A DNA stretch of 64,000 nt. Origin: Candidatus Nomurabacteria bacterium (GTDB taxonomy: Bacteria; Patescibacteriota; Minisyncoccia; Phycocordibacterales; UBA5272). The notes under the pieces were generated by a model. It was not told the origin of the DNA, did no database searches, and saw nothing but the letters and a program-made list of their open reading frames with translations. Every line of letters begins with the position of its first letter. Positions within the stretch are counted from its first letter, which is position 1. A program made the position numbers and the translations under genes. Positions 8,339-49,943 of the stretch are shown here, one piece after another. Location: contig JBAXSC010000003.1 of NCBI GenBank assembly GCA_037130925.1, positions 18,712 to 82,711 on the forward strand, read 5' to 3'.

Positions 8339-9346
8339 ATGTCAAAAGACAAAAAGAAAAAAACTATCGCTATTTTACGTGGAGGAAAGCATGATTATCA
8401 TCGCTCAATGAAAAGTGGTGCAAATGTTATGCTTTCTTTGTCTAAATATCCAGAAGAGACGAATGTGATAGATGTGGTTATAGATGAAAAAGGGAATTGG
8501 TTTGAAAAGGGAATACCCTCAGATGTTCATAGGGTATTTTCTAAAGCTGATTATTATGTCGATTTTACCCATGACGTAAAAGGTGATCATCATAATCTTG
8601 GAAGCAAATTAGATGTTAAGCAGGTATTTAAAAATGATTTTGTAAATATTTTATCTAGAGTAAATATTAAAAGAATTTTAAATCAGATTGGCTTAAATAC
8701 TTCTAGATATGTCGTATTTAGAGACGATAAAAATTTAGAAAATAGTCTAAAAGAAATCTGGGGCAAATTTCAGACTCCTATAATAGTAAAAGATGGAAAA
8801 CATATTGCCAATAAAAAAAGTCTTTTAACTTATTCATTTTTAGATACTTATAAAAGAATAAAAGAAATACTAAAATCTGGAAGCGAGGCGATATTAGAAG
8901 AACATGTGGACGGAAAATACATTTCTCTTTCTGTAATACCAAATTACAGAGGTGAAGATCTTTATATACCGACTCCTATTGAGACTATAAATGCTGAAAA
9001 TAAAATTAGATCAGTACAAGGTAAAGAAATAAAAGATAAATATTTACCAGAGCATAGTCATAATAAGATTAGCCTTTTTCATCTTGATGATGATACTAAA
9101 AAAAGATTGAAATATTTAGCTAAAGAAATACATAAAGGTCTCGCTTTGGATTATCATGTTCTCATAGATATCTGTCTTGTAAAAAATAAAAAGGGAACAG
9201 AAATAAAGATTTTAGAATTACATACCAATCCTCATCTTTCTGAAGAATCCAGATTTAGTTTTATTTTAGAAAATTCCGGAGTCGATATGGGAAGATTCGT
9301 TTTAGATAATATAGAAAAATTAGAAGAAGAAAATCTGTCTTATTAA
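8339..9346 (+). CDS. ATP-grasp enzyme, D-alanine--D-alanine ligase-like
   Basis: N-terminus IAILRGGKHDYHRSMKSGANVMLSL resembles the Ddl GG-S-E-SL-SG block; ATP-grasp-like C-terminal half. Confidence 0.55.
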   Translation: MSKDKKKKTIAILRGGKHDYHRSMKSGANVMLSLSKYPEETNVIDVVIDEKGNWFEKGIPSDVHRVFSKADYYVDFTHDVKGDHHNLGSKLDVKQVFKNDFVNILSRVNIKRILNQIGLNTSRYVVFRDDKNLENSLKEIWGKFQTPIIVKDGKHIANKKSLLTYSFLDTYKRIKEILKSGSEAILEEHVDGKYISLSVIPNYRGEDLYIPTPIETINAENKIRSVQGKEIKDKYLPEHSHNKISLFHLDDDTKKRLKYLAKEIHKGLALDYHVLIDICLVKNKKGTEIKILELHTNPHLSEESRFSFILENSGVDMGRFVLDNIEKLEEENLSY

Positions 9347-10601: not shown

Positions 10602-11898
10602 TAAATTTCATCCATGCTTTTTCTGCTGTCTTTTCTTTTTTAATTTCTTCTTTTTCTATTTTCTCGTTTATTTCTTTATTTTTAGATTTCATTTCTTCTT
10701 TTAGCTTATTTTTAGCTTCTGTATCTTGTATCTTTAATATAGAAAATATGGCTAAAAATCCTATTAATCCAACTATTAGAAACATTACATTTAAATCTAT
10801 ACTAAAAAAATTAATAAGTAAAGCCCCGATAATAGAAACGAAGAGAAATCCTATATTAGACATGTTTTGAAATAGGGCTATTAACCCAGCACTACTGCCA
10901 TCTATTTTTTTGTAGAAGTAAGCATAATTCTCTGTTTCTGTGATAGTTGCACCTAATCTTGCTAAGAATAAGATAAGTATCCAAACAAAAATATTATTAG
11001 TTGTAATATTAAATAAATATATTGAAACAAGCATAAGACTTGTTAAGAAAATACCAAATAACATTGCTTTCTTTTCTCCAAAAATCTGATCAGAGTATTT
11101 TCCTAGTTCATAAGGAATGAGAATAAAAGGTATTACAGAAATAGGAGTGATTATTCCTAAATATAATAATACAGGTATTCCTAGATTATGAGTTAAATAA
11201 AGAACTAAATAAATATTTATAACAGCATAAAAAGAATTTAAAGCAAAAGAAGATGAGATGACCCCTCTAATGTTTATATCTTTTTTAATTATTTTTAAAT
11301 CTTTAAAAAGATTTATATGTTTATATTTTGGCTCTATTACATGATTAAAAAATCTATGTGTAAGATAAAATAATGGTAACAAAGTTAAGCTACTTAAAAG
11401 AAATATTCCAGTATATCCGATAAGGTTAAAAAATTGTGCCGCTACAAAAGGTGCTGTAATAGCTCCAAAGTTATAAAGGGTTAAAACTGTTCCTCTAATA
11501 GATCCAATATTTTCATGATCAGAAAATTCTTCTATAAAAATATTTATCGATACCCATATAATAGTGACTAAAATTATATGAAGTACAGATAATAATATTA
11601 TAAAAAATAAATTAAAATTATGAGCAAAGATTAAAGCTAAAGTAGAAAAGAACTGCAGCCCTATTACAAACATTAAGCTTTTATAATTTGTAAATTTTTT
11701 AAGAATATCTCCAAAAAAATTGGATAATATTATAGATATTAATGCACTACCTGCAAATATCATAGACAAAGCTATTTGGCTAAAATATTGACTCAAGAAA
11801 TCAGAAAATAAAAAATATACTAAGAAATAATGAAATGCAAAAAATACGGTTGCAACATAGGCTATACTTAATAGTCTTTTTTTTAATCCGTTATCCAT
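10585..11898 (-). CDS. MFS-type transporter with KE-rich C-terminal tail
   Basis: 437 aa, about 12 hydrophobic helices in a 6+6 layout. Confidence 0.6.
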   Translation of the reverse strand: MDNGLKKRLLSIAYVATVFFAFHYFLVYFLFSDFLSQYFSQIALSMIFAGSALISIILSNFFGDILKKFTNYKSLMFVIGLQFFSTLALIFAHNFNLFFIILLSVLHIILVTIIWVSINIFIEEFSDHENIGSIRGTVLTLYNFGAITAPFVAAQFFNLIGYTGIFLLSSLTLLPLFYLTHRFFNHVIEPKYKHINLFKDLKIIKKDINIRGVISSSFALNSFYAVINIYLVLYLTHNLGIPVLLYLGIITPISVIPFILIPYELGKYSDQIFGEKKAMLFGIFLTSLMLVSIYLFNITTNNIFVWILILFLARLGATITETENYAYFYKKIDGSSAGLIALFQNMSNIGFLFVSIIGALLINFFSIDLNVMFLIVGLIGFLAIFSILKIQDTEAKNKLKEEMKSKNKEINEKIEKEEIKKEKTAEKAWMKFNENNF

Positions 11899-28576: not shown

Positions 28577-29425
28577 ATGAAAAAAGATTTAAACTTAAAT
28601 AAAAAGCCTATTGAAGATCTATTATTAAACATTTTACAAAAGGGTCCTATTTTGATTTCGGATTTGATATATAGTCTTTCTAAAGAAAGAGGAAATACTA
28701 CAAAGCAGGGAGTTTATAGAGTTTTAAGAAAATTAAATAACGAAGAAAAAATAGTTATTAATAAAAAACAAGTTTCTTTAAATTTGCATTTTATTAAGAA
28801 AATGAATAATTTTTTCTCTTTGGCACAATATTTTTATATTTCAGATCTTTCTAATTCAAATGACTTTTTGTGGCTTCAAGATTCAGAAAAAATATCTTAT
28901 TATTTTAAAAATTTGAATTTGTTAGATGCTTTTTGGTCTCATGTTTTTTACATGTTGAATGAAAGTATAAATATAGAAGAACCTGTGTTTTTTTATATGC
29001 CACACAATTGGTTTTATTATGTTAGACAAGATACAGAAGAGGTTATTTTAAAAGATTTACAAGAAAAGCCTAGACCTGTATATTTAACTATTTTTAATAA
29101 TAGTCCTTTAGATAAGGATTCTCAAATAAGTTATAGAAAAAATAATATACAATGTAATATTATTTCTAAAAATTTTTTTGATAAGAAAGATTTTTATTTT
29201 AGTGTTATGGGTGATTATATTTTAGAGACTCCGGTAGATTTGAATATCGTCAAAGATATTAATAAGTTTTTCGAAAATACTAAAGTTTTTGATGAGAAAG
29301 CAAAATTAGAATTATTATCTATAGTTTCAAAAAATGGAAGGAATAAACTGATTATATCTAGGAATAAAAAGAAAGCAGAAGAATATAGAAAAATATTGAG
29401 TAAAGACTTTTTTATTAAGAAATAA
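28577..29425 (+). CDS. Putative transcription regulator with N-terminal winged helix
   Basis: LLLNILQKGPILISDLIYSLSKERGNTTKQGVYRVLRKLNNEEKIV resembles wHTH (MarR/TrmB-like) domains. Confidence 0.4.
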   Translation: MKKDLNLNKKPIEDLLLNILQKGPILISDLIYSLSKERGNTTKQGVYRVLRKLNNEEKIVINKKQVSLNLHFIKKMNNFFSLAQYFYISDLSNSNDFLWLQDSEKISYYFKNLNLLDAFWSHVFYMLNESINIEEPVFFYMPHNWFYYVRQDTEEVILKDLQEKPRPVYLTIFNNSPLDKDSQISYRKNNIQCNIISKNFFDKKDFYFSVMGDYILETPVDLNIVKDINKFFENTKVFDEKAKLELLSIVSKNGRNKLIISRNKKKAEEYRKILSKDFFIKK

Positions 29426-31041: not shown

Positions 31042-31065
31042 TAGTCTTGATTTTAGTTTTTATTG

Positions 31066-31074
31066 TGATAGTAT
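31066..31074 (+). promoter_or_regulatory. Extended -10 promoter, TGATAGTAT
   Basis: Part of the 17-mer ATTGTGATAGTATTTAT (31062-31078) that is repeated at 31475-31491. Confidence 0.5.
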
Positions 31075-31119
31075 TTATTAGGTATCTTATTTTATTTTAC
31101 ATTTTTAAATTTTAAAAAC

Positions 31120-31389
31120 ATGCCGCTTCGTACAGACGATTGTGATCTTCGTGATGTGTCATTTAATATGAGTCATGGTGGAAATGGGGATTTTTATGCA
31201 ACTTTGACAGAGTATCCAAACGACGAATTACCTTCTGGAGCAAAAGAATTTAAACAAATTCATTATAGAATGAGTATGTCAGGAGGATTTGCTACTAGAT
31301 ATCCGGAAGTAAAAAATGCTTTTGTTGCTTTGTATAGAGCTATGGAAGCTGCAGGACTGAATGAATTTCCTTCAGGACCATCAAAGTAA
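31120..31389 (+). CDS. Hypothetical protein (G+C-richer orphan)
   Basis: 89-aa ORF with its own promoter and terminator; codon composition visibly less AT-biased than its neighbours. Confidence 0.45.
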   Translation: MPLRTDDCDLRDVSFNMSHGGNGDFYATLTEYPNDELPSGAKEFKQIHYRMSMSGGFATRYPEVKNAFVALYRAMEAAGLNEFPSGPSK

Positions 31390-31410
31390 AATATTTTTTA
31401 CCACATTACT

Positions 31411-31437
31411 AAAATCCCAGAAATGGGATTTTTTTAT
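31411..31437 (+). terminator. Intrinsic terminator
   Basis: AAAATCCCA-GAAA-TGGGATTTT followed by a T-run. Confidence 0.8.
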
Positions 31438-31459
31438 ATTATATATAAAAATAATATAT

Positions 31460-31487
31460 TTGACACAATTATTAATTGTGATAGTAT
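31460..31487 (+). promoter_or_regulatory. Sigma70-type promoter
   Basis: TTGACA (31460-31465), 16-nt spacer, TGaTAGTAT (-10 at 31482-31487). Confidence 0.6.
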
Positions 31488-31530
31488 TTATCTGTTAACA
31501 AAATTTGTTCATTCATAAATATTATTAAAA

Positions 31531-32178
31531 ATGGAAATATTTAATTTTAAGCAATCTATTTTATCTGCTGGTGGAAATCCGGAATCTTGTAAGTATATAT
31601 CCAAAGAAGATTTGGATATCTTAGTAAAAAAGGCTATTTATATCAAAAATAGGAGAGATAAATTTCCTTCTTTTGATGTTATTCCTGTTAATTCTTTAGA
31701 GGAAGGAATTGAACTATGTAATTTCCAAGAAGTTCATAAAAATCGATTTTTGGATGGTTTGAAAATTTTTAGAAAAGATAAAAAATTAAAACCAAAGAAA
31801 ATAATTTTAGGTTCTTTCACTGAGTATGATAAGTCTGTAAATGGAGGGTTGAATAAAATATTCGCAGACTATAAGCTCAAGATGGTTGAAAATTACGCGT
31901 ATTATTTTTTAGGTCTAATGATTTTAGATGCTAAAAAACGCAAAGTTGCAAATGCTTGCAGAGATTTTTATTTAAAGGATTACAATGATACAATTTCTGA
32001 ATTTGAGATTTTTTTAAATTCTTCAGAAGAAAAACCTTGTTCTAAAGGTGTTAGATTTATAGGAATTTCTAAAAAAAATGACTGGAAAGAATTAAATACT
32101 TTTAGTTTATTAGATTCTACTACGTTATTACCCAGGATTCAGAGACGTCATTTTTATATGTTAGAAGAAGACGTTTAA
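31531..32178 (+). CDS. Hypothetical protein
   Basis: 215-aa ORF flanked by a promoter and a terminator; no recognisable motif. Confidence 0.45.
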   Translation: MEIFNFKQSILSAGGNPESCKYISKEDLDILVKKAIYIKNRRDKFPSFDVIPVNSLEEGIELCNFQEVHKNRFLDGLKIFRKDKKLKPKKIILGSFTEYDKSVNGGLNKIFADYKLKMVENYAYYFLGLMILDAKKRKVANACRDFYLKDYNDTISEFEIFLNSSEEKPCSKGVRFIGISKKNDWKELNTFSLLDSTTLLPRIQRRHFYMLEEDV

Positions 32179-32197
32179 AAAGATTGTAATTCAGTTT

Positions 32198-32241
32198 AAG
32201 ATCCATAGACTATTAACTATATAGCACTAGGATCTTTTTTT
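32198..32241 (+). terminator. Intrinsic terminator (large loop)
   Basis: AAGATCC (32198-32204) pairs with GGATCTT (32230-32236), followed by T7. Confidence 0.5.
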
Positions 32242-32249
32242 ATTTATTA

Positions 32250-32258
32250 TGTTATAAT
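32250..32258 (+). promoter_or_regulatory. Extended -10 promoter, TGTTATAAT
   Basis: 26 nt upstream of the ATG at 32285. Confidence 0.55.
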
Positions 32259-32284
32259 TTCTTTCCTTAATTGTAACTATATAT

Positions 32285-32533
32285 ATGAAGAAAGAAGAAT
32301 TAAATAAAATAATAGCAGACCTCGAAAGAATAAGAGATGTAAATAATGCTGACAATCACGATAAAATCGAAGTTGCTGACACAATTGCAAGAATTAAATT
32401 AGATCAAGAATTAAGTGAGTCAAACAGAGAGTCTTCTCGTAGAATGTTTAGATTTACACAATGGATAATGCTCGCAACTGTGGTACAAGCTCTCGCTGTC
32501 GTGCTTCAGACATATATTGCTTATAAAAGGTAA
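32285..32533 (+). CDS. Small tail-anchored protein
   Basis: 82 aa, charged helical N-terminus, C-terminal TM WIMLATVVQALAVVLQTYIAY. Confidence 0.4.
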   Translation: MKKEELNKIIADLERIRDVNNADNHDKIEVADTIARIKLDQELSESNRESSRRMFRFTQWIMLATVVQALAVVLQTYIAYKR

Positions 32534-32544
32534 TCTGTTTTAAT

Positions 32545-32575
32545 AAAACGCCTCAATATTGAGGCGTTTTATTTT
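32545..32575 (+). terminator. Intrinsic terminator
   Basis: AAAACGCCTC-AATATT-GAGGCGTTTT. Confidence 0.85.
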
Positions 32576-32601
32576 GACATAATTCTGTTTTATGTTAATA
32601 T
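32574..32601 (+). promoter_or_regulatory. Sigma70-type promoter
   Basis: TTGACA (32574-32579), 16-nt spacer, TGtTAATAT. Confidence 0.6.
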
Positions 32602-32649
32602 TATATAGCTAAAAAACGTTCTTTTTATTAACTTATAAAACATTAAATT

Positions 32650-33081
32650 ATGCAAATGGTGGAAGCGAAAAAAACAGGCTTTACTATTAAAAGTGTCGAA
32701 AGTCTTTCTATTTTTAAATTAATAGAAAGTGAAGATGATTCTCCTGTAGATAGAGGATTTTTAAATAGATTCTTACTTAGGAAATGTAATATTTCACAGA
32801 GGAAATATTTAAGAATAAAAAATCAATACATTTATGAGTCTGGTTTTCCTGAAAAGGAATTTCATCATTCTTTATTAGATCACCTAATTTTTGATTCTTG
32901 TGTAGAAACATTTTCTGATGATTTTTCTACACAATTTCTTATTTTAAATTTCATGGAAATCTCAAAAATAGATGATTTTAATGAATTTTTAGATGAAATC
33001 GTAGACTTAAATCTAAAATGGAAAGGTATAGTAGAATTAACTATTGTTGATTCTCTATTTTTTTCATTTAAATTTATTTAA
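32650..33081 (+). CDS. Hypothetical protein
   Basis: 143-aa ORF flanked by a promoter and a terminator. Confidence 0.4.
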   Translation: MQMVEAKKTGFTIKSVESLSIFKLIESEDDSPVDRGFLNRFLLRKCNISQRKYLRIKNQYIYESGFPEKEFHHSLLDHLIFDSCVETFSDDFSTQFLILNFMEISKIDDFNEFLDEIVDLNLKWKGIVELTIVDSLFFSFKFI

Positions 33082-33106
33082 ATTTAAATGTTTTTGTTAA
33101 TTTTTT

Positions 33107-33153
33107 AAACCCATTAATTATCTTTAAAATATGATTAATGGGTTTATTTTTTT
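33107..33153. terminator. Bidirectional terminator
   Basis: 12-bp stem AAACCCATTAAT / ATTAATGGGTTT followed by T-run; between convergent genes. Confidence 0.7.
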
Positions 33154-33248
33154 TACAGAATATTTAATTTATATATGTTGCAATATTAATATTTTAATTT
33201 TATTAATAGGACTAATTTAGAAAAATAAAAACAAAAATTACACAAAAA

Positions 33249-33725
33249 TTACCAATTTTTAAATGGATTTTCTATAAGCTTCGCATTTTTATATCTACTG
33301 TCATAAGTAACTTCCTCTCCTAGCCATTCAGGTTTTTCAAAATTTTCATCTTCTGATTTTAATTCTATTTCTGCTATAATCAAGCCTTCATTTTCTTCAT
33401 GAAAAATATCTATTTCCCATTTTTGTTCAGAATTTTTGATTGGGACTATGTATCTTGTTTTAGATATTATTTTATTATCACAAAATTCAGATAAAAATAT
33501 TTTTCCATCATTTAATGGAATCTCATATTCAAATTCTGAATGAGAAAAAGAGTTTTTATTTCCGCCTTTAATAGTCAGGAAAGCCTTATCTGAAGAAGTT
33601 CGTACTCGTATTGTTTTGTTTTTATCATTATTTAAATATCCTTGTGTATATAAAGTTTCTTTAGTTGTAAACTTTTTCCAGTTGTTATTCTTTAAAAGAA
33701 ATTTTCTTTCTATTTCTAAATTCAT
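33249..33725 (-). CDS. CYTH-domain protein (CyaB/ThTPase-type triphosphate tunnel metalloenzyme)
   Basis: N-terminal MNLEIERKFLL (the EXEXK signature) and a 158-aa beta-tunnel-sized product. Confidence 0.8.
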   Translation of the reverse strand: MNLEIERKFLLKNNNWKKFTTKETLYTQGYLNNDKNKTIRVRTSSDKAFLTIKGGNKNSFSHSEFEYEIPLNDGKIFLSEFCDNKIISKTRYIVPIKNSEQKWEIDIFHEENEGLIIAEIELKSEDENFEKPEWLGEEVTYDSRYKNAKLIENPFKNW

Positions 33726-33730
33726 ATATT

Positions 33731-33739
33731 TGTGGGCGA
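33731..33739. repeat. Left copy of the 9-bp att core TGTGGGCGA
   Basis: Identical to 40672-40680 (antisense of the tRNA-Val 3' end); lies 5 nt from the CYTH start codon. Confidence 0.55.
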
Positions 33740-33943
33740 AATGGTTTTTGATTGGAACATTATGGAAATGGAGATTTTAAGATGGAAAAGGATTTTATCT
33801 TTTCATCCAAAGAGATTAAAAGTCTTAAATATATCAATAAAAAGTAATAATTCTTGATATTTTATTCTACGATTAAGTAATAGAAATATAAGAGTTAGAA
33901 AAAGAATGTATCATTTTTTAAATGATTTTATATATTTTGTTAT

Positions 33944-33973
33944 GTGACATATTAATGATTAATATGGTATAAT
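33944..33973 (+). promoter_or_regulatory. Strong promoter of the structured RNA
   Basis: GTGACA, 18-nt spacer, TGgTATAAT (-10 at 33968-33973). Confidence 0.65.
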
Positions 33974-33979
33974 CATTGT

Positions 33980-34122
33980 GCCCAAAAACCAAATAATGAA
34001 GATAGTATAAGAGCTTAATAGCTAGCTATTGATTCTGACCAGTATAGGCATTCTATGAGGAACAGAATCAGTAGTCTATCTATTGGTTTTTGGGCACCTT
34101 ATGGGGTGCCTGTTTTGTTTTT
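33980..34122 (+). ncRNA. Candidate structured RNA of unknown class (stand-alone sRNA or cis-regulatory leader)
   Basis: 15-bp perfect closing helix (33978-33992 / 34083-34097). It encloses the palindromic hairpin AATAGCTAGCTATT (34017-34030). It also encloses an 8-bp helix (34030-34037 / 34063-34070) with a nested 5-bp hairpin. A GC-rich terminator follows immediately. Confidence 0.5.
34092..34122 (+). terminator. Intrinsic terminator overlapping the 3' arm of the RNA closing helix
   Basis: GGCACC (34093-34098) pairs with GGTGCC (34105-34110), 6-nt loop, then TGTTTTGTTTTT. Confidence 0.75.
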
Positions 34123-34165
34123 ATACAGAGCACTATTTATTCAAATAAATTTTAATATTAAAAAT

Positions 34166-34489
34166 ATGGACATAGATGGTATATCAAACTTTCTGGTAGG
34201 TATTGTAATTTTTATTTTGGTTTTAGGTCTTTACTTTTTACCAACTATAACAGCTATGCGTCGTAAAAAGAAAAATGATGGTGTTATTTTGCTTATAAAT
34301 CTTTTGGTTGGTTGGACCGTTGTTGGTTGGTTGATTGCTTTAGTTATGGCAACTAGTGAACCGTCAGTAGTTGTTAATACTTCAGGGAGTATGGCTGATG
34401 AGTTAGAAAAACTTCATAATTTAAAAGAGAAAGGAATTTTGTCAGAGAAAGAATTTGAGCAAAAGAAAGCGTCACTTATTAATAAGTAA
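34166..34489 (+). CDS. Superinfection-immunity (T4 Imm-like) membrane protein with C-terminal SHOCT domain
   Basis: Start moved to the ATG at 34166 because the upstream part of the track ORF is the RNA structure. YFLPTITAMRRKKKNDGVILLINLLVGWTVVGWLIALVMA matches the Imm_superinfect pattern. ELEKLHNLKEKGILSEKEFEQKKASLI is SHOCT-like. Confidence 0.7.
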   Translation: MDIDGISNFLVGIVIFILVLGLYFLPTITAMRRKKKNDGVILLINLLVGWTVVGWLIALVMATSEPSVVVNTSGSMADELEKLHNLKEKGILSEKEFEQKKASLINK

Positions 34490-34493
34490 TTGT

Positions 34494-35441
34494 ATGTATT
34501 TATTAAGATTAAATAAAATTCAAGTATATATTAAAGTTTTACTTATAATCTTTCTGTTTCCTCTTTTATTTTTATTTCCATTAGGGACTATAATATATAT
34601 TTTGCTTTTAATAATATTCACATCTAACAAATTTTGTGTCTCTATTGATAGTTTTTTAGAGGATAAAATTTATTCTTCTGGCTTCTTTAAAAAAAGTAAA
34701 GGAATCAATATTTATAAAGAAACATTAATAAATTATTTAGAAGATGGAGAATTGTCTAGTGAAGAAAAAGAAAAATTAAATAATATTATTCAAGAATATA
34801 ATTTATCTGATAAGGATATTGAAAAATGTAAAAATATTGGTTTTAATTCATTTTTTACAAATATAACTTCCGATAGAAGAATAAGTGAAGATGAAAGATT
34901 AAAACTTATAAAAATCCAAGAGGATTTAGGGGTAAATATAGAGGATACAAATTACAGTCAGGAAATTTTTAATAAATATTACTCACTAAATCAGATAGAG
35001 GATGGAATATTACCTAAAGTTAATATTGAAAATAGTCAATTAGGTTTTTCTTTACAAAAAGGCGAAGAACTTTATTATGTAAGTAGGGCTTTTATTATAA
35101 AAAATAAATTAATTACACAAAGAATTAATTATAGCGGAATGACTGGTTCTATAAAAATAATGAAAGGGCTCAGATATAAGGTTGGAAGTATAAAAGTTCA
35201 GCCGGTAAAAATAGAGACTTTAGCAGTAGAAGATAGTGGTGTTATTTATTTATCCTCTTCAGGTTTCCATTATTTAGGAATTAAAAAACATTTTGATTTT
35301 CCTTATACAAAAATAAGTCACTTAGAGATAAGAGATGGAGTATTATATTTATATAAACAAGGTAAAGAAGCTCCTTTTATGATTTCTATGAGTGATTATG
35401 AAGTATCTTTGGCGGTAATTTCTTTCATGTTGAATAAATAG
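34494..35441 (+). CDS. Membrane protein with TerB-like helical repeats and C-terminal bacterial PH-like domain
   Basis: First ATG is 5 nt after the upstream stop. Two N-terminal TM helices. Repeats DGELSSEEKEKLNNIIQEYNLSDKDIEK and RISEDERLKLIKIQEDLGVNIED. C-terminal beta-rich segment GVIYLSSSGFHYLG...ISHLEIRDGVLYLYKQG. Confidence 0.4.
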   Translation: MYLLRLNKIQVYIKVLLIIFLFPLLFLFPLGTIIYILLLIIFTSNKFCVSIDSFLEDKIYSSGFFKKSKGINIYKETLINYLEDGELSSEEKEKLNNIIQEYNLSDKDIEKCKNIGFNSFFTNITSDRRISEDERLKLIKIQEDLGVNIEDTNYSQEIFNKYYSLNQIEDGILPKVNIENSQLGFSLQKGEELYYVSRAFIIKNKLITQRINYSGMTGSIKIMKGLRYKVGSIKVQPVKIETLAVEDSGVIYLSSSGFHYLGIKKHFDFPYTKISHLEIRDGVLYLYKQGKEAPFMISMSDYEVSLAVISFMLNK

Positions 35442-35500
35442 TATTTAGTTATTATTTGTATTTTAAATTTAAGTATATTAATCACTGTATTTTTTTATTA

Positions 35501-35530
35501 TTGCTCATATTTTTTGAATTATGATATAAT
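35501..35530 (+). promoter_or_regulatory. Promoter of the protease cassette
   Basis: TTGCTC, 18-nt spacer, TATGATATAAT (35520-35530), the same 11-mer used by chromosomal genes. Confidence 0.6.
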
Positions 35531-35548
35531 CTTTTCATAGTATATTTT

Positions 35549-36292
35549 ATGATGGATTTTTCTAAAGTTGTTGAAAAGATAAAACCAAGTATAGCTTTTA
35601 TAATAACTGGAAACGGCACTGGTTCTGGTTTTGTTTTTCAAAAAAAAGGAATATTAATAACGTGTAATCATGTGGTAGAAGGAAATCAATTTGTTTCAAT
35701 ACGTTTTCCAGATATTGATAATTTTATTCATGCTGAAGTTGTTTTGAGAGACAATGAACATGATTTAGCAATTTTAAAGTTTCAAGATGATTCAAGACAT
35801 CCTTTATCTGTGTGTGAAGTTTCTAATATAAAAGAAGGTATGCCTGTTATATTTTCAGGATATCCTTTAGATTTGCAGGTTTTAACAACACATCAGGGTA
35901 TATTGTCTTCTATATCTAAAGACCAGACAGGGAAGACAAATTATCTTATTGATGGAACTGTTAATTCTGGAAATAGTGGATGTCCTTTAATGGATAAAAA
36001 TGGTGATGTTGTAGGTATTGTAAATGCTAAAAATATAGGACAATTTAGTGGTAGTGATTTATTTAATAAAGTTAAATCTATGTCTTCTGGACTTGTATCT
36101 ATATCAGGAGTTGATATATCAATGATATTAAAAATATTATCTAGTAATACCCAAATGGGTATAGGTTATGCAGTTCCGGTAAGTTATGTTCCAGAACATA
36201 AAGATGTTAGTGATATACTGGTTGAAAAAGTTGTTATTGAAGATGACGGGAAGAAAGATGTGAAAGATAAAACAAAAATAATTAAATTATAA
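35549..36292 (+). CDS. Cytoplasmic trypsin-like (S1/DegP-type) serine protease, no signal peptide, no PDZ
   Basis: Catalytic triad contexts ITCNHVVEG (His), NEHDLAILKF (Asp), GNSGCPLMDKNGDVVGIV (Ser). Confidence 0.8.
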   Translation: MMDFSKVVEKIKPSIAFIITGNGTGSGFVFQKKGILITCNHVVEGNQFVSIRFPDIDNFIHAEVVLRDNEHDLAILKFQDDSRHPLSVCEVSNIKEGMPVIFSGYPLDLQVLTTHQGILSSISKDQTGKTNYLIDGTVNSGNSGCPLMDKNGDVVGIVNAKNIGQFSGSDLFNKVKSMSSGLVSISGVDISMILKILSSNTQMGIGYAVPVSYVPEHKDVSDILVEKVVIEDDGKKDVKDKTKIIKL

Positions 36293-38983: not shown

Positions 38984-40720
38984 ATGGAATCTCTTATTTA
39001 TGTTATTGGTTATGCTAGAGTTAGTAGTGTTGACCAAGCTAGAGGTAATGACAGCTTAGAGAATCAAGAATTTAGTATTAGAGAATACTGTAAACGAAAA
39101 GGATATATTCTATTTGAAGACAAAGTTTTTAAGGAAGCATTTACTGGGAGTAATACTTTTCGTCCCGCATATACAAAAATAAAAGAAATTTTACAAAGTA
39201 TTAATAATGGAAAGATTAAAAAAATAAAATATTTAATTTTTTATGATTTTGATAGATTAACAAGAGGTGGTTCAGATGAATACGAAAAGATATGGTCAGA
39301 GATGGAGACTTTCAGTGTTGAATTAAGAGATACAAAAGATGAAATAATTAAAGAGGATAGAGACTTAATGAAAGAAGAATTTGGTTTCGATTATAGTTTT
39401 TCTTGGGCAAAAGGAAGACCTAGTGAGGATATGGAAAAACAGAGAACTGAAGAAGCAAAGCGGGATAAAAAGAGAATTTTACAGAAATTAATTTTTTCAG
39501 AAATAAGATTAACTCAAAATGGTTATCAGATTGGTAAACCGGACTATGGTTTCAGAAACAAAAAGATTCTAGCTGGAACGAAAGAAAGATTTGTTCAGTC
39601 TCCTTATGAAGATGAAGCTAAGTTTGTTATTGAAATGTTTAATCTTAGAGCTGAAGGGGTTTTCTCAGATAATGAAATTTGCGACAAAATAAATGCTATG
39701 GGTTATAAGAGTGCTAGAAGAAAAAAATGGAGTAAGGACCAGCAAAATATTATTGGTTATACAGGTAGTGTTAAGTTAAAACCAAAAGAATTACAAAATT
39801 TTATAAAAAGAACTTCATATTGTGGAATTATTTGTAAGAAATGGACAAAATATATACCGATAAAAGCAAAATGGGAAGGTATAGTATCGATAGATTTATG
39901 GAATAGAGCAAACAGGGGAAAATTCTTTTTGGAGCAAGATGATAAAGATAAAGAATCTTTCATGTTGCTTAAAAATATAAATCCTAATTTTTCAAAAAAG
40001 AAACAAAAATATAATCCTAGTTTTAAATATAGAGGTATAGTTTGTTGCGATGTATGTGGCAATCAGATGACAGCTAGTTTTTCGCAAGGTAAAAGTGGTA
40101 AAAAGTTTCCTTTTTATCATTGTTCTAAAAATCATAAACAGTTTAGTAAGACTAAAAAAGAAGTTGAAGATATTATTGATAGCACTATTAATAGTATTTC
40201 TTTCAAAGAAAACTTTATTAAAGAACTTACAAAATCTCTAGAGTTTCAGTTTCAAGAACAAGAGAAAAATTTAGCAAAGTTTACTTCAGAGACAAATATT
40301 AATGTTAGTAATTTAGAAATTGAGAAATCTAAATTATTTGAAGCTTATATTAATGAGCAAGATGAATTTATTAAAAATGAAATAAGAGAAAGATTTAAAA
40401 GAAAAGAAGAGGAAATAGTGAAAGCTAGAAATGAAAGAAATAAAGCAGAGCTTGAAGAAGATGATGTGACTAACTTTTTAAGATTTGCTAAAGAATTAAT
40501 GGAACACCCAGAAAAAACCTTTGAAGATATTGATTCTAAAGAAGAATTACTTAGTGTTTTTAGTCTGTTTGTAGAAGACCTCCCAAGATACTCTGATTTT
40601 ATAAATGGAACACTAAATTTAACTAAATTTTTCAAGCTTAATAAGGAATTCAGTGATAATAAAAACTATTCTGTGGGCGATACAGGATTCGAACCTGTGA
40701 CATCTACAACGTCAATGTAG
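38984..40720 (+). CDS. Large serine recombinase (integrase)
   Basis: N-terminal resolvase domain VIGYARVSSVDQA (catalytic Ser). Recombinase domain, zinc ribbon CCDVCGN...FYHCSKNH, and a coiled coil. The last 47 nt overlap tRNA-Val antisense. Confidence 0.9.
   Translation: MESLIYVIGYARVSSVDQARGNDSLENQEFSIREYCKRKGYILFEDKVFKEAFTGSNTFRPAYTKIKEILQSINNGKIKKIKYLIFYDFDRLTRGGSDEYEKIWSEMETFSVELRDTKDEIIKEDRDLMKEEFGFDYSFSWAKGRPSEDMEKQRTEEAKRDKKRILQKLIFSEIRLTQNGYQIGKPDYGFRNKKILAGTKERFVQSPYEDEAKFVIEMFNLRAEGVFSDNEICDKINAMGYKSARRKKWSKDQQNIIGYTGSVKLKPKELQNFIKRTSYCGIICKKWTKYIPIKAKWEGIVSIDLWNRANRGKFFLEQDDKDKESFMLLKNINPNFSKKKQKYNPSFKYRGIVCCDVCGNQMTASFSQGKSGKKFPFYHCSKNHKQFSKTKKEVEDIIDSTINSISFKENFIKELTKSLEFQFQEQEKNLAKFTSETNINVSNLEIEKSKLFEAYINEQDEFIKNEIRERFKRKEEEIVKARNERNKAELEEDDVTNFLRFAKELMEHPEKTFEDIDSKEELLSVFSLFVEDLPRYSDFINGTLNLTKFFKLNKEFSDNKNYSVGDTGFEPVTSTTSM
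40672..40680. repeat. Right copy of the 9-bp att core TGTGGGCGA
   Basis: Antisense of tRNA-Val positions 67-73 plus 2 trailer nt; identical to 33731-33739. Confidence 0.55.
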
Positions 40721-40746
40721 CGCTCTACCAACTGAGCTAACCGCCC
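40674..40746 (-). tRNA. tRNA-Val (anticodon GAC)
   Basis: Minus strand: GGGCGGT-TA-GCTC-AGTTGGT-AGAGC-G-CTACA-TTGACGT-TGTAG-ATGTC-ACAGG-TTCGAAT-CCTGT-ATCGCCC-A. Perfect cloverleaf, no encoded CCA. Confidence 0.9.
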
Positions 40747-49744: not shown

Positions 49745-49834
49745 GGAGACGTGTCAGAGTGGTCTAACGTACCTCTTTGCTAAAGAGGCAGGGTGTCAAA
49801 GCCCTCGGAGGTTCGAATCCTCTCGTCTCCGCCA
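49745..49834 (+). tRNA. tRNA-Ser (anticodon GCU), type II, CCA encoded
   Basis: GGAGACG ... CCTCT-TTGCTAA-AGAGG, long variable arm, GGAGG-TTCGAAT-CCTCT, CGTCTCC-G-CCA; the D-stem is weak (only 1 of 3 Watson-Crick pairs by my fold). Confidence 0.8.
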
Positions 49835-49849
49835 CGTTTTTTAATAAAA

Positions 49850-49936
49850 GGAGAATTGGATGAGTGGCTTAAATCAGCGGTTTACTAAACCGCCGAACCT
49901 TTACCGGTTCCGTGAGTTCGAATCTCACATTCTCCG
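49850..49936 (+). tRNA. Type II Ser-like tRNA with anticodon ACU
   Basis: GGAGAAT-TG-GAT-GAGTGGCTTAA-ATC-A-GCGGT-TTACTAA-ACCGC, variable arm GAACC/GGTTC, GTGAG-TTCGAAT-CTCAC, ATTCTCC-G. Anticodon at 49884-49886. No encoded CCA. Confidence 0.7.
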
Positions 49937-49943
49937 CAAAAAT

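Follow-up and report, generated by a model that had tools for sequence, protein, structure and literature searches.

Introduction

Each put RNA of phage HK022 is built of two stem-loops and acts on RNA polymerase, and the short transcript running from PR' to tR' in phage lambda requires the Q protein for read-through. In the plasmids pT181 and pIP501, attenuation is driven by antisense RNA, the partner being a counter-transcript from the opposite strand. Among the riboswitch and attenuation leaders that make use of terminator platforms, the HMP-PP 'thiS' riboswitch is reported to have a terminator-embedded aptamer (PMC6478431). Here, we describe an RNA of about 145 nt encoded at 33944-34122 of a 64,000-nt stretch of Candidatus Nomurabacteria bacterium (assembly GCA_037130925.1, contig JBAXSC010000003.1; the whole stretch analysed is hereafter called the window), where it lies at the left end of a mobile element integrated into a tRNA gene. 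A promoter and a terminator delimit this genuinely structured molecule, which is organised around a three-way junction and belongs to a previously undescribed family of Paceibacteria (Patescibacteria, or candidate phyla radiation, CPR). The tip of its longest internal arm is complementary to the terminator in all members, which points to a cis-acting antiterminator/terminator leader for accessory genes, mostly encoding membrane or secreted proteins, a reading that we judge to have an even chance of being right.

Results

Promoter, fold and terminator of the RNA

The RNA is preceded by a sigma-70-type promoter on the + strand (33944-33973), composed of the -35 box GTGACA (33944-33949), an 18-nt spacer and the extended -10 element TGgTATAAT (33965-33973). 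The original prediction had regarded this promoter as strong, and it proved to be the best site across 33000-35500, being the only one to match the consensus at 11 of 12 positions with the additional TG. It sets the predicted +1 at the 5' end of the structure, as expected of an independent transcription unit; given its placement relative to the closing helix P1, transcription should begin at the first base of P1 (33978) or within 2 nt of it.

The 5' arm of P1, GTGCCCAAAAACCAA (33978-33992, + strand), is the exact reverse complement of the 3' arm at 34083-34097, and neither has another copy in the 64-kb window. The 15-bp P1 is separated by an internal loop (7 nt on one side, 1 nt on the other) from the 6-bp helix P1b, in which AGAUAG (34000-34005) pairs with CUAUCU (34076-34081). 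Two further helices complete the three-way junction, namely P2, a variable hairpin (AGCU-UAAU-AGCU, 34012-34023) in which 4/4 pairs covary, and P3, a 13-bp helix between 34025-34037 and 34063-34075. Beyond P3, an internal loop (ACCA on one side, (G)AGGAA on the other) flanks the apical hairpin UAUAG-GCAUU-CUAUG (34043-34057). Readings of this ACCA/GAGGAA loop as a kink turn (K-turn) or a loop E motif were considered and discarded, as by our reasoning they misfit the consensus strand order.

The predicted transcript ends at an intrinsic, Rho-independent terminator (34093-34122, + strand) made of GGCACC (34093-34098), a loop, GGUGCC (34105-34110) and the U-tract UGUUUUGUUUUU (34111-34122). A terminator scan placed the stem at 34091-34112, with nine pairs (five G-C) ahead of the T-run, and returned no other terminator-like site in the 2.5 kb scanned. 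A GC-rich hairpin followed by a U-tract is present in all family members. The folding energy of the whole structure is far below chance: the minimum free energy (MFE) of the 151-nt stretch is -51.7 kcal/mol (z = -5.6), and none of 200 dinucleotide shuffles was as stable.

All the sequence features listed in the original prediction (promoter, closing helix, palindrome, 8-bp helix, hairpin and terminator) lie at the coordinates that it had given, including the 15-bp closing helix and its 5-nt overlap with the GC-rich terminator in the window, and the three-way-junction-like fold is borne out by the folding energy and by covariation in homologous loci. Some details had to be revised. The two further pairs expected after a bulge are replaced by the internal loop and P1b; the 8-bp helix and its nested 5-bp hairpin both exist, but those 8 bp are only part of P3; the 14-nt palindrome (34017-34030) is present but not conserved, being split in the family between the variable P2 and the start of P3.

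Family members and covariation

Some 80 proteins, the majority from Patescibacteria, are homologous to the large serine recombinase of the element, and an alignment of 36 of them led to 78 loci from GTDB genomes, in which nhmmer and blastn searches with the RNA recovered copies at two loci, L059 and L069. A metagenome search with the pattern ATAGGCATTCTATG plus GTGCC gave 31 hits, 26 of which were chance matches inside genes, while L139, L146 (= L150) and L153 were true members. Covariance models built stepwise added two divergent members, L166 (= L167) and L172 (= L173), located beside recombinases related to that of L059. A covariance-model search of all the recombinase loci collected (~1.4 Mb) returned no member beyond these. 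The family is rare in the data covered, totalling eight distinct copies (the window and seven others) in metagenome-assembled genomes of Patescibacteria (Paceibacteria) and in metagenomes.

A -10-like hexamer preceded by TGn occurs in 8/8 members; it reads TAAACT in L166 and is TATAAT or similar in the rest. Counted from the end of the hexamer, P1 has its first G at position 7 in seven members and at position 5 in the window. P1/P1b, P2, P3 and the terminator appeared in each of the six members first folded singly. The same architecture was obtained for L166 and also for L173, except that the MFE structure of the latter pairs the P3 tip differently. RNAalifold returned the same helices, with 25/38 pairs covarying. 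In the eight-sequence alignment, which was fitted to the covariance model and hence favours the structure, although the independent single folds agree with it, 34/44 pairs are changed on both sides and 91% of the cells are paired; sliding the partners by 1-3 columns lowered pairing to 31-43%, and 0/500 shuffles reached the observed values. The covariation check called for on homologous loci thus found the helices kept by compensatory changes, the mark of a structured RNA. By helix, both sides are changed in 12/15 pairs of P1, 5/5 modelled pairs of P1b covary (82% of cells paired), as do 11/13 pairs of P3 (95%), and the P2 position holds a hairpin of unrelated sequence in the six members folded first and a hairpin also in L166 and L173.

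Sequence conservation is strongest in the apical hairpin, on the purine-rich side of the loop below it and in the terminator (GCACC..CUGGGGUGCCUAUUUUG), while the junction strands and P2 vary freely. Six members share the motif ATAGGCATTCTATG without change, and L166 and L173 have different sequences in its place. Similarity between members is limited to the promoter-terminator stretch, with unrelated flanks, and the module moves as one unit from promoter to terminator.

Long inverted repeats near the end of a mobile element, together with recurring ATAGG/CCTAT half-sites, could also belong to an element working as DNA, such as a miniature inverted-repeat transposable element (MITE), an origin or transfer site, an operator or a binding site of the recombinase. 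We consider this very improbable. The arm sequences vary between copies yet stay complementary, often through G-U pairs, which argues for selection on RNA rather than on a DNA terminus recognised by a protein; the conserved promoter and terminator keep a single orientation; of the ~85 loci with a recombinase of this family, only four carry the RNA; and the 64-kb window holds no second copy, the RNA locus lacking the features of a MITE or transposon end. The G-U pairs within the helices and the unequal strand scores of the search (191 bits forward, 21.6 bits reverse) fit an RNA transcribed from the + strand.

Complementarity between the P3 tip and the terminator

The original prediction had offered a riboswitch-like leader in which full closure of the long helix would compete with the terminator and gate read-through. 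In a test covering the six members other than L166 and L173, P1 and the terminator overlap by 5 nt in the window and by only 0-2 nt in the remaining five (2 nt in four of them, none in L139), and forcing the terminator costs 0-4.8 kcal/mol with the core fold intact. P1 and the terminator are not supported as a conserved, mutually exclusive pair, and the switch based on P1 falls. A leader gating read-through is nevertheless consistent with, though not proven by, a different and conserved competitor for the terminator, the tip of P3.

In the window, the candidate antiterminator segment AUAGGCAUUCUA (34044-34055, + strand) at the P3 tip is complementary to the tail segment UGGGGUGCCUGU (34102-34113, + strand), which runs from the end of the terminator loop through the entire 3' arm into the first bases of the U-tract. 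The duplex of AUAGGCAUUCUA with UGGGGUGCCUGU/UAU has a computed energy of -16.1 kcal/mol, equalled by 6/2000 and 1/2000 shuffles of the one and the other partner. The two divergent members have different sequences at both sites and pair more extensively: the apex of L166 (GCGUGCG-AAAUA-CGCACGC) and its tail GGGCGUGCGUAUUUUG form an 18-bp match (-30.9 kcal/mol; 0/2000 shuffles), and the apex AUGGGCAUUCUA and tail UAGGGUGCCCAU of L173 can be extended to 18 bp (-28.2 kcal/mol; 0/2000 shuffles). In a common register, 12/12 apex-tail pairs are standard in all five distinct apex/tail combinations. Four pairs are changed on both sides (A-U to G-C, G-C to C-G, U-G to G-C and A-U to C-G) and three more carry compatible one-sided changes; in slid controls, 28-54% of the positions were paired and no double changes occurred.

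The apex can also be partly hidden in a local hairpin of 5-6 bp in the main type, formed with a different arm in L166 and reduced to 3 bp in L173. This local hairpin is less conserved than the long-range apex-tail pairing. In every member, the combined length of P1 and P1b (18-23 bp) is similar to that of P3 with its cap (20-22 bp).

Genes downstream of the RNA

The next open reading frame (ORF) is co-oriented with the RNA at 8/8 loci and starts 4-46 nt past the U-tract. The first downstream gene encodes the Imm-SHOCT protein with two membrane helices in the window (gap ~44 nt), a small signal-peptide protein in L069 (15 nt), an N-terminally anchored protein in L059 (42 nt), a signal-peptide protein exceeding 1000 aa, whose sequence motifs are subtilisin-like, in L150 (40 nt), a multi-pass membrane protein in L153 (~25 nt), a signal-peptide protein in L139 (~46 nt) and a 63-aa membrane protein in L166 (~7 nt). 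In L173, the gap is 4 nt and the first ORF, of 44 codons, is mostly masked in the record, being followed by a methyltransferase and a restriction enzyme. The first downstream protein is thus membrane-bound or secreted in 7/8 loci, the eighth being masked. By a simple hydropathy test, an N-terminal hydrophobic stretch occurs in 22/64 genes of the window and in 6/6 of the downstream proteins run; the 63-aa protein of L166 has one as well, as read from its sequence. The small membrane proteins of L166 (~8720-8914, minus strand) and L153 (287-541, minus strand) share the C-terminal motif R[FY]ED..RP...Y..YHGW, their loci being otherwise unrelated.

Start signals were surveyed across the window. 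A Shine-Dalgarno-like sequence precedes 2/57 genes; in many, the ATG follows a TGnTATAAT at a distance of 6-9 nt, as in the recombinase gene (TGaTATAAT), the SDR gene and the gene at 28577. The scarcity of the former and the position of the latter suggest that leaderless or near-leaderless mRNAs are widespread in this genome. A promoter for the downstream genes was sought inside the terminator region and no acceptable -35/-10 spacing was found, a negative limited by the AT-richness and the leaderless-type promoters of this genome.

These unexpected start signals lend weight to the main alternative, less probable than the leader, in which the RNA is a stand-alone small RNA (sRNA) acting in trans or binding a protein: the terminator would be efficient, the 145-nt RNA stable, and the neighbouring gene served by its own promoter. 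As tentatively, the paired 5' end, with the tail tucked onto the P3 tip after release, would make a compact, nuclease-resistant molecule whose apex or tail binds a host protein or a target RNA. Such an RNA would account for the discrete module with its precise predicted +1 at P1 and conserved terminator, for homology that stops at that terminator, and for the ability of terminator and P1 to coexist; it is also in keeping with mutually unrelated downstream genes, with leaderless-type promoters as the genome norm and with the plausible -10 boxes just before the ATG in L059 and in the window. On the other hand, 8/8 copies are co-oriented with an ORF only 4-46 nt away, and in L166, L173 and L069, where the start codon follows the U-tract by 4-15 nt, a separate promoter would overlap the terminator hairpin; this spacing was counted in favour of the leader. 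Moreover, a built-in competitor for the terminator 3' arm is the logic of an antiterminator and is hard to square with a need for efficient termination, and no candidate partner protein is conserved beside the RNA.

Association with recombinase loci

Five of the eight copies (window, L059, L069, L166 and L173) lie within ~6 kb of a recombinase of the family, a count that is biased in that four of the five were found through recombinase loci. At least five of the eight copies precede accessory genes of tRNA-integrating serine-recombinase elements. Conversely, only four of the ~85 loci with a recombinase of this family carry the RNA (L059, L069, L166 = L167 and L172 = L173), so that the RNA is an optional cargo module and not an obligate partner of the recombinase. 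Nor is it tied to Imm, since a homologue of the Imm protein with 57% identity (L045) has no such RNA upstream.

A leader located directly after a strong promoter, borne by a mobile element and heading a string of co-oriented genes, with its 5' end buried in a helix, might instead promote processive antitermination constitutively or stabilise the mRNA, like HK022 put or Bacillus EAR, by acting on the polymerase or shielding the 5' end and sensing no signal. The cargo operon would then be expressed across terminators. Both this mode of action and its supposed effect are unlikely: the RNA has no similarity to put or EAR and no Rfam match, the recombinase gene has its own TGaTATAAT promoter, and such a leader would leave unexplained why the module has a conserved terminator of its own and a segment complementary to it.

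Searches against known RNA families and sequence collections

In line with a core that the original prediction could not assign to TPP, purine, preQ1, c-di-GMP, fluoride or SRP, the RNA lies outside the known families. Rfam 15 (4227 covariance models) at gathering thresholds recovered only four tRNAs in the 64-kb window; at E <= 10, the segment 33850-34250 gave three chance matches with 13-18 bits against thresholds of 40-66, and at E <= 1 two other family members gave none. Comparisons by blastn of the window and L153 copies with phage collections, and of the window and L069 copies with plasmid collections, yielded only chance matches of ~20-40 nt. Scanning IMG/VR with the 15-mer of P1 produced 42 hits, all of them single-arm chance matches, and scanning with the core and tail patterns produced no true family member. 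In Rfam and the literature searched, neither this RNA nor any regulatory RNA described for Patescibacteria was found.

The mobile element and its insertion site

The window has a GC content of ~27%. In contigs of relatives, whose CYTH protein is 81-83% identical, SecA, SDR, tRNA-Val, CYTH and RlmH are direct neighbours, and the site is empty in L049, L050 and L053, where tRNA-Val abuts the start codon of CYTH. The window carries a 6.9-kb insertion exactly between CYTH and tRNA-Val, bounded by two copies of the repeat TGTGGGCGA, antisense of the tRNA-Val 3' end: attL, beside CYTH (33731-33739, + strand), and attR (40672-40680, + strand), inside the 3' end of tRNA-Val (40673-40746, minus strand). 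The RNA had been placed at the left end of the element, and its promoter indeed begins 205 nt inside that end. Empty sites, junction repeats and recombinase domains identify a tRNA-integrating large-serine-recombinase element, and from these sequence features we conclude that the large serine recombinase inserted it into the 3' end of tRNA-Val. The insertion comprises, in order, the RNA, the Imm_superinfect-SHOCT gene, a 315-aa membrane protein, a trypsin-like protease, four proteins without assigned function and the 578-aa recombinase.

The Imm_superinfect + SHOCT membrane protein (34166-34489, + strand; Pfam, with PHROGs 'immunity to superinfection') has 107 aa in the Logan gene call and 104 aa in its 57%-identical homologue, in agreement with the start at 34166 originally proposed. 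The NCBI record has it as a 144-aa protein (P0002) starting at AUG 34055, inside the conserved hairpin of the RNA. A small ORF from this AUG was considered and rejected, being unconserved and meeting immediate stops in L069 and L139; as had been expected, 34055-34165 is not conserved coding sequence, the other members stopping at once (e.g. AUGUGA). The 144-aa annotation is likely a start-codon mis-annotation.

The recombinase gene (38984-40720, + strand; Pfam Resolvase, Recombinase and Zn_ribbon_recom) crosses attR into tRNA-Val, its final 16 codons (VGDTGFEPVTSTTSM*) being antisense to the 3' half of that tRNA. 'GIEP' closes the family consensus, and the enzyme of L069 (9932-11653) ends ..GIEPRFKT* inside tRNA-Arg (11613-11687); reading into the target tRNA appears, on these grounds, to be a family-wide trait. 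In the excised circle, the ORF would run into 33740-33857 and gain a different tail of ~38 aa, and integration and excision may thus give the recombinase different C-termini.

As for the cargo, the trypsin-like protease (35549-36292) has matches to PDC-M35A and to the protease portion of the PADLOC retron type XI RT-protease, and the 315-aa membrane protein before it (within 34494-36292) matches PDC-S48. The region 34494-36292 may represent defence cargo, with no reverse transcriptase in the element. Small proteins of L059 (6077-6553) and L069 (7737-8132) have an N-terminus resembling a terminase small subunit (..NALQSAIKAGYS..), the former with weak matches to Pfam Terminase_2 and PHROG 51, which hints that some of the RNA-bearing recombinase elements may be phage satellites. 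A repeat search did not find the left boundary of the L069 element.

Further features of the window lie outside the element. The gap between RlmH and CYTH (31042-33248) is a second variable spot, measuring 2.2 kb with four ORFs lacking a Pfam match, as compared with 17 bp in L049 and two other ORFs in L052. In the chromosomal part just upstream of RlmH, 30082-30561 matches phage T4 GP30.3 (Pfam PF08010, E = 3e-16). At 49745-49937, a tRNA-Ser with the unusual anticodon ACU stands beside tRNA-Ser(GCU), a pair kept in the related contig L049 (1985-2167).

Discussion

The favoured reading, a cis-acting leader, can be cast as a mechanism in which P1 and P3, of similar length (~18-23 bp each), would serve as a scaffold folding back at the three-way junction. 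The fold-back could bring the P3 tip close to the foot of P1 and so to the emerging terminator. If the tip then captured the terminator 3' arm, the terminator hairpin would not form and the polymerase would read through into the co-oriented genes 4-46 nt further on, which in the window would be Imm/SHOCT and the subsequent cargo genes of the element. If, instead, the tip were held in its local hairpin or by some factor, transcription would terminate and the 145-nt RNA would be released. This balance may be set by a protein, ligand or ion, or by folding kinetics alone. Both the read-through and the cis interaction are what we infer from the sequences.

Several points weigh against this mechanism. 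The apex-tail helix would be a long-range pseudoknot spanning the three-way junction. Its compensatory changes come from two lineages only, and the register of one of them, L166, was chosen by hand, the covariance-model alignment agreeing for the first 7 nt. A TATAAT lies 5 nt before the ATG in L059 and a TAATAT 7 nt before the Imm ATG in the window; the downstream genes may thus own leaderless-type promoters, and some may be independent of read-through. Finally, these genes belong to unrelated families, which suggests no common ligand, and the conserved bases are in the apex and tail, not at the junction, the usual place of a riboswitch pocket.

A bolder version of the leader would be a new class of self-contained RNA switch on CPR mobile elements, in which promoter, three-way-junction sensor and a long-range antiterminator opposed to a terminator would together sense a cellular signal (a metabolite, an ion or a host-contact cue) and turn on membrane or secreted accessory genes. 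Among the family loci, the alternative pairing with the terminator is supported, and no ligand, no conserved junction pocket and no shared downstream pathway was found. We regard this version as doubtful. If true, it would rank among the earliest regulatory RNAs reported from this unculturable, episymbiotic group.

Because no regulatory RNA was found described for Patescibacteria, and the genes here lack Shine-Dalgarno sequences and look mostly leaderless, a conserved leader of 145 nt that carries its own antiterminator and terminator would offer an uncommon way into gene regulation in these bacteria or their mobile elements. The proteins that it would regulate, at the surface or secreted, are the likeliest mediators of contact with hosts and phages. 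Its architecture is unusual in that two long helices appear to act as a ruler bringing a distal loop onto the terminator. The family model also has practical uses, as it corrects the Imm start codon and marks the cargo operons of a tRNA-integrating recombinase family, and the RNA, being small and sharply delimited, is suited to direct in vitro transcription and probing.

Comparison with known systems

With 6S RNA, the small RNA of the signal recognition particle (SRP) and Y RNA, the present RNA shares a long closing helix between its 5' and 3' ends, a size within ~100-190 nt, and a promoter and terminator of its own. It differs from them in having no covariance-model match at E <= 10, no central bubble, no SRP domain IV loops and no GNRA tetraloop. 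SRP RNA was considered for an 'ACCAG ... GGAA' likeness and for the neighbouring secreted proteins, and was rejected on the grounds that there is no model match, no symmetric loop and no GNRA loop and that the insertion is missing from relatives; the same grounds led to the rejection of 6S and Y RNA. Because close relatives lack the insertion that holds it, the RNA is not a housekeeping gene. Retron msr-msd RNAs similarly have inverted repeats around a structured RNA beside defence-like genes, but no reverse transcriptase domain was found in any of the eight element proteins (Pfam, PADLOC and PHROGs), and the neighbours of the other family members are unrelated.

Other parallels come from antitermination and attenuation. 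Like HK022 put and the lambda PR'-tR' unit, the module sits on a mobile element and couples a strong promoter to a short structured RNA that ends at a terminator, ahead of an operon that in those phages, and presumably here, depends on read-through. Neither of those systems has the self-complementary design of apex and terminator, nor any sequence or covariance-model similarity to the module. In pT181 and pIP501, RNA-RNA pairing likewise decides whether a terminator hairpin forms in the nascent leader, while here both partners reside on one sense RNA.

A further likeness in layout is to riboswitch and attenuation leaders with terminator platforms, such as HMP-PP 'thiS' (PMC6478431). In these, too, a promoter-proximal folded RNA precedes an intrinsic terminator just before the ORF, and a conserved segment is able to pair with one arm of that terminator. 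Our RNA departs from such leaders in lacking an Rfam match, in its variable junction bases and in the absence of a common function among the downstream genes, as well as in the position of the competitor, which lies ~50 nt away at the tip of the long arm. With the antiterminator strand at that tip, the alternative helix has to be a long-range pseudoknot, formed across the three-way junction. The family is new and its principle, attenuation by alternative pairing, is known; what sets it apart is an unusual layout that places the antiterminator strand at the end of a long scaffold arm.

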